Assembly: GCA_965205605.1 (NCBI GenBank)
Contig: CBDBHE010000001.1
Coordinates: 1-64,000 of the forward strand
DNA from: Spirochaetota bacterium
GTDB taxonomy: Bacteria > Spirochaetota > UBA12135 > COTS27 > CBDBHE01
Reading direction: 5' to 3'
Length of the DNA: 64,000 nt
The notes below the pieces were generated by a model that saw nothing but the letters and a program-made list of their open reading frames with translations, ran no database searches and was not told the origin of the DNA. A program made the translations under genes and the position numbers. Shown here piece by piece: positions 19,437 through 24,981 of the stretch (position 1 is its first letter; every line of letters starts with the position of its first letter).

Positions 19437-20168
19437 TTAATTTATCAAAGTAAATTTAACAAAATCATATCTAAGATCAATCTTTTTAACTTTCATCTTA
19501 TTTATTTTTTGGTATAAATACGCATACCTTGCTTTCCTAAGACTTTCTACATTAAAAGAGTACCCTAAAATACTTTCTAAATGATTTTCTTTTAAAAACA
19601 ACGTATTATCTTTACCAAGGCAAATCCCTGAAGAAATATTAATAATATCCTTCTCTTCTTTAGGCAAAGCTCTATAAGCTGCTAAAAAATCATTAACTAA
19701 TTTTTTTTTTATAGATTCTGTAGTTAAATTAGAATCATATTCAATATAAAATTTATCAAAATTTAAAATCCCTTCTTCTTCTGTAATTACTTGTCCCCAA
19801 TCATTAATTTCTTTTAATTTTTCCCCATCTTTAATAATAAAGTTCCCTTCTTTTTCACAAAAAGTAATCCTCAACGTATCTGGATATTTTTTTTTAATTT
19901 TAATCACTTCCAAACGTGTTTGATTTTCAATATCATTCCTTATTCTTTTTTCATCAATAAAAACCAAAGAAGATCCTTCAAAGATGTTCATTTTGTTAAG
20001 AATATAAGCACTATCCATTTGTTCAAACCCAATTAATTGAATTTTTTTAATAGGAAAAATTTTTAATTGCTTGAGAAAAGGTTTTAAATTTTTATATGAA
20101 GTAAAAATAAAAAAAAAAAAAGAACTAAAAAATAAAAAATAAAAAATAAGATTTTTTTTCATTAACAT
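19437..20168 (-). CDS. ftsQ: FtsQ/DivIB family protein
   Basis: single N-terminal TM, POTRA-like KKYPDTLRI, C-terminal IDLRY; upstream of ftsA. Confidence 0.82.
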   Translation of the reverse strand: MLMKKNLIFYFLFFSSFFFFIFTSYKNLKPFLKQLKIFPIKKIQLIGFEQMDSAYILNKMNIFEGSSLVFIDEKRIRNDIENQTRLEVIKIKKKYPDTLRITFCEKEGNFIIKDGEKLKEINDWGQVITEEEGILNFDKFYIEYDSNLTTESIKKKLVNDFLAAYRALPKEEKDIINISSGICLGKDNTLFLKENHLESILGYSFNVESLRKARYAYLYQKINKMKVKKIDLRYDFVKFTLIN

Positions 20169-20236: not shown

Positions 20237-20244
20237 AAACTTTA
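20237..20244. repeat. target site duplication AAACTTTA (left copy)
   Basis: identical to 22576-22583 and abuts the inverted repeat. Confidence 0.88.
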
Positions 20245-20270
20245 AGTAACTATATATCAAATTAGACTAA
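20245..20270. repeat. terminal inverted repeat AGTAACTATATATCAAATTAGACTAA
   Basis: reverse complement of 22550-22575 except for the terminal base. Confidence 0.93.
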
Positions 20271-20942
20271 TTTTTTAATTTTTTTTCTAACGTTATCAAT
20301 TTTAATTAACTGTTCTAAAAAATAATTGTAATTATCTTTAGCGTCTTGTCTTCTTTTTTCTATTATCTCACTATAATCAATAAATAATAAATCGCAAAAT
20401 TCTTTCCCTGTCATAATTTCATCTATAGAAAAAGTTCCTTTCATTCCTGTTATAATTTCTTGTTTGTCTATTTTATTGAAACAACAAATATGAATAGATG
20501 TTGAGTATTGTATTTTAGTCGACACATACCTTTGAAATTTTTGTAAGGCTTCTTTTTCTCCATGAACTTTTTTAGTGTCAAATACATGCCCGTCTTTTAG
20601 CTCAATAATATGACAATGTTTCTTATAACTTTTAATTTTGATAATTAAAAAATCAGGCTCATGCTTAGGAAAGTCAATATGTTTTGATTTTTTTGTTACT
20701 TCTTTAGGAATTAAATATGTGGCATCCATATCTCCGATAATTTGATCGTTTTCAAAAAAATTGTCAAGGTTGTGAATAACAATTTCACCTGCTCTTTTCT
20801 TTATCATTTTTTCAAGCTCATTTCCATTTGCAATAGACGTGCTATGTATTTTAGTAATCAAATCTCCCAATTCTTTATTGCCAAAAAGTCTCTCATAACT
20901 TCCTGAGGAATTTTCAGGATTAGCATTCCTCATTAAAGCCAT
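20262..20942 (-). CDS. putative type II restriction endonuclease, PD-(D/E)XK fold
   Basis: GNELE...EPDFLII...IIELKDG catalytic pattern; overlaps the end of the methyltransferase gene. Confidence 0.75.
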   Translation of the reverse strand: MALMRNANPENSSGSYERLFGNKELGDLITKIHSTSIANGNELEKMIKKRAGEIVIHNLDNFFENDQIIGDMDATYLIPKEVTKKSKHIDFPKHEPDFLIIKIKSYKKHCHIIELKDGHVFDTKKVHGEKEALQKFQRYVSTKIQYSTSIHICCFNKIDKQEIITGMKGTFSIDEIMTGKEFCDLLFIDYSEIIEKRRQDAKDNYNYFLEQLIKIDNVRKKIKKLV

Positions 20943-21636
20943 TTATATCCCCCCCAATAAAATCTCTGTTTGATTGTTTACAAGCCTTATAAACCGATCC
21001 GCCACCCATTGCCACATCTAAAACAACCTCCCCTTCATTCGTTACGGCTTCAATAAGCCTTTTTTGTAAATCAACGGGCTTTGCATGAGGATGAAGTGTT
21101 TTGTCAGCTTCCTCTTCAATAACATTCGGAATATTTTTTATTCTCCAAACATTTTTAGCTTTCAAAGGTTTTTTTTGTAACACAACCAAAAACTCTGCCT
21201 TGTTCCTTGTTCTATAACCCATTCCGATTCTTGTTTTTTCCCATACCACTAAATCGACGCTTTGCAAATCTGTTTTCGTTACCCAACTCTTAAACCCCTC
21301 ACATAAATGAAATTTATCAATCCATAAAAAAAGATGTCCCGAAGGTTGTAAAACTCTATTTATCTCTTTTATAAAAATAATAATTTTTTTCTCATCCATT
21401 TGTTCTAAAGAACATCGTTTTTTTTCTCTATTTTTTCCTTCATTGCCATATTTTTGATAATCCAAAATACCCCGATATTGGGGATCAAAAAAAGCACAAG
21501 GAATCGATCCTTTTGTTAATCTTCCTAATAAAACAAGCCCGTCTATTTTTTGAGGATTATTGATTAAACCTAATAAATCCTTAGATTGAAAAATAGAATC
21601 TTCTATTACACTTTGAAAATTCCCTAAATTATCCAT
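20920..21636 (-). CDS. beta-class amino (N6A/N4C) DNA methyltransferase
   Basis: motif IV variant FFDPQY, then RVLQPSG, HPHAKP, and motif I LDVAMGGGS near the C-terminus. Confidence 0.9.
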   Translation of the reverse strand: MDNLGNFQSVIEDSIFQSKDLLGLINNPQKIDGLVLLGRLTKGSIPCAFFDPQYRGILDYQKYGNEGKNREKKRCSLEQMDEKKIIIFIKEINRVLQPSGHLFLWIDKFHLCEGFKSWVTKTDLQSVDLVVWEKTRIGMGYRTRNKAEFLVVLQKKPLKAKNVWRIKNIPNVIEEEADKTLHPHAKPVDLQKRLIEAVTNEGEVVLDVAMGGGSVYKACKQSNRDFIGGDINGFNEEC

Positions 21637-22494
21637 TGGTAATTTCCTTATAAATTAATTTTTTAGAATTCTCTAAAAGGTTTTTCAGTTTATTTTTGTT
21701 AAAGTTAAACCTAAAAGCATATTCATCCAAAAATTCTCAATGTTATTTGTGTGAAAAACCCCATTGACGTATTGTTTAACTCCGTGATTTACTTTGTAAT
21801 GACTCAAACGCTTATATGCCTTAAAATCATCACTGATAATTGAAGCCCTATTATCAATTTTATCATCGATGTATTTCTTAAGTGTCTTAATTTTAGTGTC
21901 TTCAATGTGTTTCGCATTAACAAGCTTTTTGTTTCCATAAACACTTCTTTGAATAGAGCCTACAATAACTTTTTTTGTTTGAATTGAGCGTCCTTGAGTC
22001 CCTTTAGTCTTTTTATTTAAATGTTTATTGCTTTCTTTTCCACCAATATAAGTCTCATCAATTTCCACATCACCGAAAAGCTTATTATAATTAGGGAATG
22101 AATTACGTATTTTATATAACATCGTCCAAGCCGTTTTTTGTGTTACCCCGATTTGCTTTGCTAATTGAATGCTCGAAATCCCTTTGCTACTTGTGGATAA
22201 AAGATATAAAGAAGCAAACCATTTATTTAATGGTAACTTCGTACTTTCAAAAAAAGTCCCCACCAAAACATTAAACAATTTTTTACATTGAGAACATCTA
22301 TAAACTTTCTTTAATCCTTTTGAGTTAGTCCTATCAATATAATGCTTTTCTTTTGAATTACAATGAGAACACCAAACGCCATTTTTATATCTTATTAAAA
22401 TAAGATAAGATAAACAAGCCTCATCATCTTTAAATTTGTTTAAAAATTTTATTATTGATAACATTTTTACAACTTCTGTAAAGGAAAATAACAC
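21629..22494 (-). pseudogene. IS1595-family DDE transposase with an internal deletion and frameshift near the C-terminus
   Basis: CxxC...CxxC zinc ribbon, HTH (TQKTAW), VEIDETY, ISDD, VNH, HTNNIENFW; the tail LDEYAFRFN...* lies in another frame ending at 21629. Confidence 0.88.
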
Positions 22495-22549
22495 GCTTTT
22501 ATTATATTTTCAATAAAAAAAGACAAAAAAACTAAAAAGTAGTATTTTT

Positions 22550-22575
22550 TTAGTCTAATTTGATATATAGTTACC
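22550..22575. repeat. terminal inverted repeat TTAGTCTAATTTGATATATAGTTACC
   Basis: pairs with 20245-20270. Confidence 0.93.
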
Positions 22576-22583
22576 AAACTTTA
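22576..22583. repeat. target site duplication AAACTTTA (right copy)
   Basis: identical to 20237-20244. Confidence 0.88.
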
Positions 22584-22601: not shown

Positions 22602-23594
22602 TTAAATCGATTGAAATAAATGACTTTTAAAAGACATCAAACTTTGTAATAAAAGATTTTCAATAAATAAAGTCATTGATGATTTTTCAATTTTCAACAT
22701 AGCTGGAATATCACTTAACTCTGTCATTCCTGGTTGGGTATTAATTTCAAGAAAATAAGGCTTATTACTTTTTTGTTCAAAAATAAAATCTATGCGAACA
22801 CAAGAAGAAAAATTAAAAATTTGATAGATTTTACAAACAATTTGCTTAATATCACTTAAATTCTTTGCAGAAAGAAAATCCGCTGTTTTTAATTTTGTCT
22901 TTCCTTGTGTGTATTTTGCTTCATAATCATAAAATTGATTATTGCTTACTATTTCTAAAATAGGAAGCATTTTAAGTGTTTCTTTATTTTTATAAATACC
23001 AACGGTTATTTCCATTCCTTCTATCTTATTTTCTATATAAAAGGCATTCAATTGACTTTTTGATTTTAAATAAATATAATGCTTCTCCCACTCACTTTCA
23101 TTTTCAACTAAAAAAACTTCAATAGAAGACCCACTACTAATTTTTTTTAAAAAAAAAGGGAAAATAAGCCCTTTTGCCTTTATTTCTTTTAAAACATTAA
23201 GATGATCTGTGATTTTCAAGTCTTTTAAAACGACATGTTTGCTCATTAAAATTTCATGGCTTAAAAGAATTTCTTTAGTTTTAATTTTATTAAAAGCAAG
23301 TGCACTTGAAAGCAAATTTTCTCCTGTATATGGGATCTCAAGTAATTCCAAGCATCCTTGAATATGACCATCTTCCCCAAAAACACCGTGAAGAGCATTA
23401 AAAAAGATATCAAAAAATTGACATTTTTTTTGTTTTAAAAAAAAATCTTTACCCACATCAATTTTTTCAACTTGATACCCTTCGTTTTTTAAAAGATTGT
23501 AAACATGCTTTCCCGACCTTAGCGAAATATTTTTTTCAGAGCCAAACCCTCCCATTAAAATACCTATTTTTTTATCTTTTAACAACTTATTCAT
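22602..23594 (-). CDS. ddl: D-alanine--D-alanine ligase
   Basis: MGGFGSEKNISL, NALHGVFGEDG, GSS, YDYEAKY, EINTQPGMT; ATG 23594 overlaps the murC stop. Confidence 0.95.
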   Translation of the reverse strand: MNKLLKDKKIGILMGGFGSEKNISLRSGKHVYNLLKNEGYQVEKIDVGKDFFLKQKKCQFFDIFFNALHGVFGEDGHIQGCLELLEIPYTGENLLSSALAFNKIKTKEILLSHEILMSKHVVLKDLKITDHLNVLKEIKAKGLIFPFFLKKISSGSSIEVFLVENESEWEKHYIYLKSKSQLNAFYIENKIEGMEITVGIYKNKETLKMLPILEIVSNNQFYDYEAKYTQGKTKLKTADFLSAKNLSDIKQIVCKIYQIFNFSSCVRIDFIFEQKSNKPYFLEINTQPGMTELSDIPAMLKIEKSSMTLFIENLLLQSLMSFKSHLFQSI

Positions 23595-24981
23595 TCGTAT
23601 TAACCAGCCGCTGAGCGAATTTATAAATATTACCCGCTCCAATAGTCAAAATAATTCCTTTTTCATCCTTATGATTTTCTTTTATTTTTGTTATAAGTTG
23701 ATCTTGATCTTTAATATAATATTTTTTTTTGGGTTTTTTAATTCTTTTGTAAATTAGTTCACTACTAACATCTTTTATCGGTTCTTCTCCAGCAGAATAA
23801 ATATCAACTAAATACAGAGTTTGTATTTTTTCAAAACTTTTTGCAAAATCATCAAAATGAGCCAAAGTCCTTGTATAACGATGAGGTTGAAAAATACAAA
23901 TTAAATGATTTGTTTTTTTAACTAACGCGTTAATCGTTACTTTTATTTCTGTAGGGTGATGCCCATAATCATCAATGACTTTAAATTGATTCCAAGTCCC
24001 TAAAAATGACATTCTTCTTGAAATTCCCATGAAATGACTTAAAGAAGCTTTCACTTTTTTCATCGGAATCCCAAGTTCGTAAGCTACTCCAATAGCAGCG
24101 AGTGAATTTAAAACATTATGTTCTCCTATCATCCGAAGCTCAAAATCTCCAAGTGACTTTTTATTTAAAAAAACTTCATAACTCATTTTATCGTCAACAT
24201 AACGAATCTCCTTGGCTTTAATATTTGCTTTTTGATTCTCAATTCCATAACTTAAATAAGGTTTTTTAATTTGATTTTCCAAAGCAACCAAATAAGGGTT
24301 GTCAAAACATAAAATGTTTTTTCCATAAAAAGGAGTTTTATTAATAAAATCTAAAAAATAAGAAATTTGGTTTTCTTCCGTTTTAAAATAGTCCATATGA
24401 TCAAAATCAATATTGGTTACAACAGAAATAACAGGAGAAAGTTTTAAAAAAGACCCATCACTTTCATCTGCTTCACAAACTAAATAAGCACTTTTACCAA
24501 AACTAGCATTAGAGTTAATCCCAAACCATTCTCCCCCTATAACAGCTGTTGGCGAAAGTTTTGCATCAAAAAGCACAGATGAAATTAAAGAAGTTGTCGT
24601 TGTTTTACCATGAGTCCCTGCTACAGCAATTCCAAAACGAAGCCTCATAAGCTCTGCTAACATTTCAGCTCTTTTAATAATAGGTATTTTTTGTTCTCTA
24701 GCAGCTAAAATCTCAGAATTTGCTGGTGAAATCACACTCGTTGTTACAACCACATCTGCTTGATTAATATTAGAAGCTTGATGTCCTATAAAAATTTTTG
24801 CTCCTTTCTTTTTGATTTCATTTGTATTACTAGAGTCCAATAAATCACTTCCTTGAATTTTAAACCCCATGCTTTGAAGTACTTTTGCAACAGCAGACAT
24901 ACCAATCCCACCAATACCAATAAAATGAATTCGTTTTACCTTTTTAAATAGATCTAAATTAACTTTTTTATTGATTCTCAT
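23587..24981 (-). CDS. murC: UDP-N-acetylmuramate--L-alanine ligase
   Basis: GIGGIGMS, GTHGKTTT, EADESD, DDYGHHPTE, FQPHRYTR. Confidence 0.97.
   Translation of the reverse strand: MRINKKVNLDLFKKVKRIHFIGIGGIGMSAVAKVLQSMGFKIQGSDLLDSSNTNEIKKKGAKIFIGHQASNINQADVVVTTSVISPANSEILAAREQKIPIIKRAEMLAELMRLRFGIAVAGTHGKTTTTSLISSVLFDAKLSPTAVIGGEWFGINSNASFGKSAYLVCEADESDGSFLKLSPVISVVTNIDFDHMDYFKTEENQISYFLDFINKTPFYGKNILCFDNPYLVALENQIKKPYLSYGIENQKANIKAKEIRYVDDKMSYEVFLNKKSLGDFELRMIGEHNVLNSLAAIGVAYELGIPMKKVKASLSHFMGISRRMSFLGTWNQFKVIDDYGHHPTEIKVTINALVKKTNHLICIFQPHRYTRTLAHFDDFAKSFEKIQTLYLVDIYSAGEEPIKDVSSELIYKRIKKPKKKYYIKDQDQLITKIKENHKDEKGIILTIGAGNIYKFAQRLVNTNE

Follow-up and report, generated by a model that had tools for sequence, protein, structure and literature searches.

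In our study, a 2.33-kb element at positions 20245-22575 of a 64,000-nt stretch of a Spirochaetota bacterium genome (hereafter the window, to which all coordinates refer; the source is a 1.69-Mb assembly of 8 contigs, 91% complete) was found to be, very probably, a transporter insertion sequence (tIS) of the IS1595 family, which carries a type II restriction-modification (R-M) operon as its cargo and is now stranded at its site. Three open reading frames (ORFs) of 269, 238 and 226 aa, all on the minus strand, lie between its terminal inverted repeats and correspond to a transposase, a DNA methyltransferase and a restriction endonuclease. A preliminary description, made from the sequence, had read the region as an IS1595 element enclosing a type II R-M pair. 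This is supported both by the domain and family matches of the proteins and by related elements of other genomes, which transpose as a unit.

The left terminal inverted repeat, at the nuclease end (20245-20270), and the right one, at the transposase end (22550-22575), had been described as 26-bp arms with 25/26 identical positions. They were found to comprise a 25-nt perfect pair (20246-20270 and 22550-22574; 25/25 nt complementary, 100%, both by reading of the sequence and by a repeat finder) and an outermost, 26th base which is unpaired (A at 20245 and C at 22575). This arm pair is the sole perfect long pair among the 25 longest inverted pairs listed by the repeat finder. An 8-bp target-site duplication, AAACTTTA, abuts both arms on the outside as exact copies read from the sequence (20237-20244 and 22576-22583), and it encloses the element as had been stated earlier. 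For AT-rich DNA with a per-base match of ~0.33, the chance of an 8-bp repeat at these fixed positions is ~1e-4 and that of a perfect inverted pair of 25 nt at any place within 3.2 kb is ~1e-5; by these hand estimates both terminal features are far beyond chance. Terminal inverted repeats of ~25 bp and an 8-bp target duplication are features of IS1595, and the enclosure by the arms of methylase and nuclease ORFs, which are unrelated to transposition, is the feature of a tIS. Several copies or another sign of movement, also looked for as an IS1595 feature, were not seen for the window element, which is single-copy in the assembly. No other copy of the 25-nt arm was detected in the 1.69 Mb with <=3 mismatches allowed. 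Related ends are found elsewhere, for example at the loci L018, L035, L059, L069, L151 and L155.

The transposase ORF (21685-22494, minus strand, 269 aa) encodes the zinc ribbon, the helix-turn-helix and most of the DDE domain of an IS1595-family transposase. It matched NCBIfam NF033547 (E 2.7e-40, positions 1-184, the match ending at model position 184/215), PF12762 (E 3.3e-21, positions 2-125 of 153) and the IS1595 zinc ribbon PF12760 (E 7e-10). After the HTNNIENFW motif the ORF consists of 12 out-of-frame residues and then a stop codon. The conserved C-terminal block EFLDEYAFRFN...LIYKEITNG survives in another frame (21632-21736, followed by a stop at 21629-21631), and the translation of this minus-strand remnant (21629-21736, EFLDEYAFRFN...ITNG and then the stop) aligns with the YxDEFxxRxN block at the C-terminus of nine intact relatives, which are 287-344 aa long. 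In the alignment, ~21 residues of these nine relatives (ALLKRGYIGTFHHFSEKHMGR type) are missing from the DNA of the window transposase, and the deleted stretch takes in the basic residue that follows the catalytic glutamate at a distance of seven positions. A basic residue at this position is important in DDE transposases. The window transposase is broken by an internal out-of-frame deletion and is a pseudogene; the intact transposase frame of an autonomous element is absent. The earlier statement that the three genes overlap holds for the methylase and the nuclease (by 23 nt). On the other hand, the transposase ORF stops 48 nt upstream of the methylase gene without any overlap, and only the dead frame of the transposase C-terminus overlaps the methylase ATG, by 8 nt.

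The perfect terminal repeats, the intact duplication and the persistence of the conserved C-terminal block in another frame are points in favour of an element which is still active and self-mobile, whose complete transposase would arise by programmed frameshifting or be provided in trans. A frameshift is used in this way by IS1, to which IS1595 is related. Such continued mobility is, however, highly improbable. The ~21 residues are absent from the DNA, therefore no frameshifting could restore the transposase, and the element is single-copy. Moreover, of the three PF12762 matches in the assembly, the two besides that of the window carry stop codons, counted as 8 and 1. One is a remnant on contig 4 (G000:C4:49755-50535) with eight or nine stop codons and no adjoining methylase or nuclease, and the other is a 40-codon C-terminal fragment on contig 7 (G000:C7:19677-19796) with 1 stop codon. 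As these matches are only remnants, no helper was found, that is, no intact IS1595 transposase able to act in trans in the 91%-complete assembly. Owing to the deletion in its own transposase and to this lack of an intact one elsewhere in the assembly, the copy is stranded. The expression 'compact single-IS vehicle', which had been used for it, suits the architecture and the relatives, which move whole, but not the window copy itself, which is not working (broken transposase, single copy, no helper found).

The first cargo gene (20920-21636, minus strand) encodes a 238-aa N6/N4 DNA methyltransferase, which matched PF01555 (E 3.4e-19) and PADLOC MTase_II PDLC03271 (E 9.4e-75). In the beta class of these enzymes, motif IV (DPPY-like) is N-terminal to motif I, the S-adenosylmethionine (AdoMet) loop. 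Here DPQY at 51-54 precedes the AdoMet-loop-like LDVAMGGGS at 205-213, in agreement with the beta-class assignment of the preliminary description. A separate amino-methyltransferase, as in type II R-M systems, is present in the element, with a P-to-V change in the AdoMet loop. The protein departs at 5 of the 68 columns that are >=95% conserved, which is the highest count among 93 relatives. Four of these substitutions, R145N, H167K, D171N and the AdoMet-loop change P208V, are shared by none of the other relatives in this set of 93, and the fifth is D203E. The adjacent nuclease, in contrast, shows no such deviations.

The second cargo gene (20262-20942, minus strand) encodes the 226-aa endonuclease, and its stop codon (20262-20264) lies within the left arm, as had been noticed earlier. 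The protein matched PADLOC REase_II PDLC03487 at nearly full length (E 5.2e-55, residues 12-224), which places a distinct endonuclease, belonging to a recognised type II family, next to the methyltransferase. It has at least 395 homologues of 220-240 aa, the closest of those listed (P0002-P0004) being 59-62% identical; none was found in the phage collection. The residues E95-P96-D97 and E114-L115-K116 are invariant in a 32-sequence alignment, and in the AlphaFold2 (AF2) model (predicted local distance difference test score, pLDDT, 91.4) the catalytic residues are placed on adjacent strands (98-104 and 107-116). By the alignment and the model together, the protein carries a PD-(D/E)XK catalytic signature on a conserved core sheet. 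Structural matches of the model at Z 5-8, where Z <=8 is the range that the tool calls common and does not decide the matter by itself, were almost all PD-(D/E)XK nucleases, including the Upx nuclease domain (8.0), EcoO109I (6.9) and a Pyrococcus abyssi repair endonuclease (6.5), and further BsaWI, Cfr10I and Hjc. A Foldseek search with the model gave only weak rows and nothing at E <=0.001, the 32-homologue profile matched none of the solved structures by sequence at E <=10, and no Pfam or NCBIfam family was matched beyond sub-threshold noise (Pfam E up to 0.1). The invariant signature residues and the similar predicted fold are consistent with the PD-(D/E)XK nuclease that had been proposed, and they speak against a 226-aa protein without a nuclease fold, the outcome which had been named as fatal to that proposal. 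Membership of RE_TdeIII (PF09520) was suggested by a protein Atlas feature (score 0.93, rank 12) and was ruled out, as hhalign against 12 members gave a probability of 1.9% and there was no Pfam match (E up to 0.1).

The unusual methyltransferase, off at 5/68 near-invariant columns, the AdoMet-loop proline included, and top of the 93 in this respect, brings up another reading, in which the R-M genes are decaying cargo: the nuclease would be silent or inactive, the methyltransferase drifting, and the element a neutral relic without any defence or addiction role. The transposase is already dead, and its frameshift uncouples the translation of the methyltransferase from the upstream ORF, which also fits decay. 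However, all three frames are open apart from the transposase lesion, and the nuclease retains 35/35 of the columns that are >=95% conserved among 134 distinct relatives, together with all the catalytic-motif residues. Purine-rich, ribosome-binding-site-like stretches were read from the sequence ahead of the start codons of both genes. Moreover, an expressed nuclease of such perfect conservation would kill the cell if the neighbouring methylase were dead. Decay of the cargo is, on this balance, unlikely, though by no means negligible. Most likely, the methylase and nuclease still form an ordinary R-M system, which would methylate the host DNA and cut unmethylated incoming DNA; the full conservation of the nuclease speaks for continued protection of the genome by the methylase.

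The same transposase-methylase-nuclease unit was found in other genomes. A genome scan with the nuclease gave 254 confirmed places, and among the best 80, which were analysed, a methylase gene lies directly upstream of the nuclease gene at 77; a same-orientation IS1595 transposase lies further upstream at 17 of the 80, in nine genomes. A metagenome scan with the single nuclease sequence gave no relative, whereas the nuclease alignment as a query yielded 80 loci (37 of them with >=1700 nt upstream), with the methylase directly upstream at 76/80 and the complete transposase-methylase-nuclease order at 6/80, on six contigs. The ends of these relatives share the motif GGGAAYTATATAC...TTYTAGCCA (L018, L035, L059, L151, L155 and, with a variant core, L069), which has ~16/24 positions in common with the window arm by hand alignment. 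Exact 8-bp duplications flank relatives at L035 (CTTTTTTA), L036, L040, L042 and L069, and the 3' end of the nuclease gene abuts or enters the repeat in L018, L035, L059, L069 and L155, as it does in the window. The L069 case (L069:4208-5692) is a 1485-bp methylase-nuclease cassette without transposase, with IS1595-type ends of 24 bp (22/24 matching) and the exact duplication AAAATTTA. This cassette derives from the same type of element and is non-autonomous. A degenerate or partial transposase beside an intact R-M pair, the same state as in the window, was seen at L032, L047, L059 and L083.

Some further relatives were observed. At L027:3170-5700, a transposase-methylase-nuclease element lies inside a methylase gene of the same family, at the conserved YGNEG codons and with the duplication AATGAAGG; the disrupted methylase is not followed by a second nuclease gene. 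The same inserted-in-methylase structure was found at L018 and L142. The closest nuclease relative found with context (L138:669-3039, 54% identity) has an IS1595 transposase upstream, and its ends differ (38 bp, 34/38 matching, no matching 8-bp flanks). Nuclease homologues of 42-43% identity, annotated as restriction endonuclease or hypothetical protein, are also encoded on five conjugative Campylobacter coli and C. jejuni plasmids of 29-32 kb (H1-H5).

Movement of the whole unit is seen in a Ruegeria metagenome-assembled genome (MAG; G401, loci L034-L044). Its element is 2748 bp long, has intact genes of 341, 240 and 222 aa and 26-bp perfect ends, and is present in 13 full-length copies at 100% identity, in one more lacking 11 nt and in at least 5 large pieces. 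Exact 8-bp duplications flank it at three sites, L036, L040 and L042 (TTGTCTTT, TAATTTTA and ATTGTTTT). The 13 identical full copies with 8-bp duplications show that the transposase-methylase-nuclease unit transposes whole in this genome. The copy number is unusually high for a complete type II R-M operon. Two of the loci, L034 and L044, share a contig at a distance of ~13 kb. In reverse complement, the 8-mer to the right of L034 (ATTCATAT) matches that to the right of L044 (ATATGAAT), and the one to the left of L044 (TTTTCAAA) recurs to the right of L038. These swapped flanking 8-mers suggest inversion or recombination between element copies.

The insertion site of the window element is the spacer between ddl (22602-23642, minus strand), the flanking host gene upstream, which is intact, and ftsQ (19437-20168, minus strand), the flanking host gene downstream; in relatives, the homologues of FtsQ and FtsA adjoin each other. 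The duplication lies 18 nt from the ddl stop codon and 68 nt from the ftsQ start, and the spacer is 94 bp once the element and one copy of the duplication are removed. The element is co-directional with the murC-ddl-ftsQ-ftsA genes of the dcw (cell-division) cluster. The nearest relatives in the genome collection are of the same order, and 8 such genomes were compared at ftsQ. Ddl directly adjoins FtsQ in two of them (L099 and L101), and the remaining six have no ddl within the ~1.5 kb examined upstream of ftsQ. Transposase, methylase or nuclease were found at ftsQ in 0/8, so the situation that had been named earlier as evidence against the proposal, the same genes here without the repeats, was not encountered among them.

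These data also bear on the origin of the R-M pair, which could have been resident, with a plain IS1595 landing beside it and the left 'repeat' belonging elsewhere, so that the R-M genes would not be cargo. The transposase is absent at 89 of the 111 loci (window included) which have >=1800 nt upstream of the nuclease, therefore the R-M family usually lives outside any IS, and 0/29 IS1595 loci in a 400-genome sample of the phylum carry the methylase or the nuclease. Nevertheless, the far end of the nuclease gene is marked by the second arm, which takes in its stop codon, all three genes stand between the two copies of the 8-bp duplication, the same layout recurs elsewhere with related ends and transposes whole, and the relatives with ddl adjoining ftsQ have no R-M genes there. 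A resident pair is already contradicted by this geometry and has almost no probability left.

The reading of the window element as a stranded IS1595 tIS with an R-M operon has a number of points against it. A true empty site with a single copy of AAACTTTA, which had been predicted between ddl and ftsQ, was not seen among the relatives, which are of the same order at best, because the collection holds no closer relative; only the adjacency of the two genes, in two of the eight genomes, agrees with that prediction. The GC content of the element (0.24-0.34) is no different from that of its flanks, and composition gives no sign of recent arrival. Promoter-like sites numbered 12 in a scan for promoters and terminators, as compared to 16.6 +/- 4.3 in the shuffled controls, which is no excess. 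The methyltransferase substitutions leave its predicted activity open. The window transposase is 46% identical to that of a plain IS1595 of its own phylum (L109), as compared to 31-35% to the R-M-linked proteobacterial ones. Finally, on a nuclease tree of 103 rows (leaving out eight duplicate Ruegeria copies and the loci without methylase or without 1800 nt upstream), 12 changes are required to account for linkage to the transposase, and well-supported branches force at least 5 of them; therefore a single capture followed by many losses and repeated capture or cassette exchange cannot be told apart by the trees.

The transposase tree (27 rows) places 8/9 R-M-linked transposases, the window's included, in one 12-row group with support 88/91, which also holds four plain ISs, and the R-M-linkage label is clustered on it (4 changes as compared to 7.8 in shuffles). 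It is possible, at a tentative level, that the methylase-nuclease pair is the standing partner of one IS1595 sub-lineage, a lasting alliance which would cross phyla (this genome's own, Alpha- and Gammaproteobacteria, and Chloroflexota), amplify an intact R-M operon and shed transposase-dead or transposase-less cassettes. If this is true, the R-M genes would stabilise the insertions and the IS would supply copy number and spread, in a lineage reaching 13 or more identical copies per genome and inserted even into a homologous methylase gene. Such an alliance between a transposon and an R-M system does not seem to have been described as such in the literature searched.

The history of the window element under the favoured reading, an IS1595 tIS with R-M cargo, may be outlined as follows. 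The ancestral unit would have run from the right repeat through a promoter region, the transposase, the methyltransferase and the endonuclease to the left repeat, with the methyltransferase start overlapping the transposase stop and the endonuclease gene overlapping that of the methyltransferase. As the anatomy shows, the 25-bp ends were bound by the transposase, which placed the complete 2.33-kb unit in the spacer between ddl and ftsQ with duplication of 8 bp, possibly by way of a circular copy-out intermediate, the route suggested for the IS1595 family in the literature. After insertion, an out-of-frame deletion took away ~21 residues of the C-terminal catalytic region of the transposase. 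Read-through transcription from the element into ftsQ-ftsA is plausible because the element is co-directional with the dcw genes. Roles in addiction, by post-segregational killing, and in defence are likewise plausible for the R-M pair.

Passenger-carrying IS1595 elements and transposon-like R-M units have already been described. According to the TnCentral preprint (10.1101/2021.05.26.445724), tIS elements have so far been known only from the IS1595 and IS66 families. MTnSag1 and tISCpe8 are described in PMC5704250 as having repeats of 25 bp, duplications of 8 bp and a circular intermediate. The window element is like them in having a single IS1595-type DDE transposase, 25-bp ends, an 8-bp duplication and passenger genes inside. 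The cargo of these two elements is reportedly lincosamide resistance and mobilisation functions, whereas in the window a type II R-M operon is carried by an element with a broken transposase. Furuta, Abe and Kobayashi 2010 (PMC2853133) report R-M units bracketed by inverted repeats and 8-bp target duplications, among them a Neisseria gonorrhoeae unit in which 26/26 repeats go with an 8-bp duplication and with a transposase-motif gene called 'likely inactivated', and they cite Siguier et al. 2009 for R-M or solitary methylase genes flanked by IS elements. These units resemble the window element in having R-M genes within inverted repeats and an 8-bp target duplication. Their R-M types are given there as type IIP (Xanthomonas oryzae) and as a type IIG gene with an S-subunit homologue (N. 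gonorrhoeae), and their mobilising family is unassigned there, whereas the window element belongs to IS1595 and has active multi-copy relatives.

In comparison to the window element, the plain IS1595 ISs of the same phylum (L109-L137) have transposases with 27-49% identity to that of the window and an unchanged order of domains, and they are elements of ~1 kb, with neither a methylase nor a nuclease beside the transposase at any of the 29 loci. In case of the IS-free methylase-nuclease pairs (L021, L026, L055 and the Campylobacter plasmids H1-H5), the gene order and the close spacing are the same as in the window, with methylases 52-62% and nucleases 40-54% identical to its own, whereas no transposase is present within the flank examined and the tIS end motif was not detected. 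An IS1595 transposase-methylase-nuclease unit was not found described in the literature searched, with PMC6211672, PMC3339403, PMC7285500, PMC9296519 and PMC3467074 among it, which did not extend to ISfinder and REBASE, where prior registration is possible. In itself, the window element is another case of defence genes inside a transposon, a clear but ordinary one.

Our study shows, with clean boundaries, one simple route by which R-M genes may pass between distant bacteria, namely as the cargo of a single IS. The aftermath is also seen in the window, where an intact nuclease gene, an open methylase gene and a dead transposase remain within an essential cell-division cluster. For annotation, small R-M pairs with AT-rich 25-bp inverted ends should be treated as IS1595 cargo cassettes. 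Of the side results, the most interesting is the family of R-M-carrying relatives, multi-copy and spread across phyla, in which the 13-copy Ruegeria element would be a convenient natural system to find out if an IS spreads better or worse with R-M cargo.

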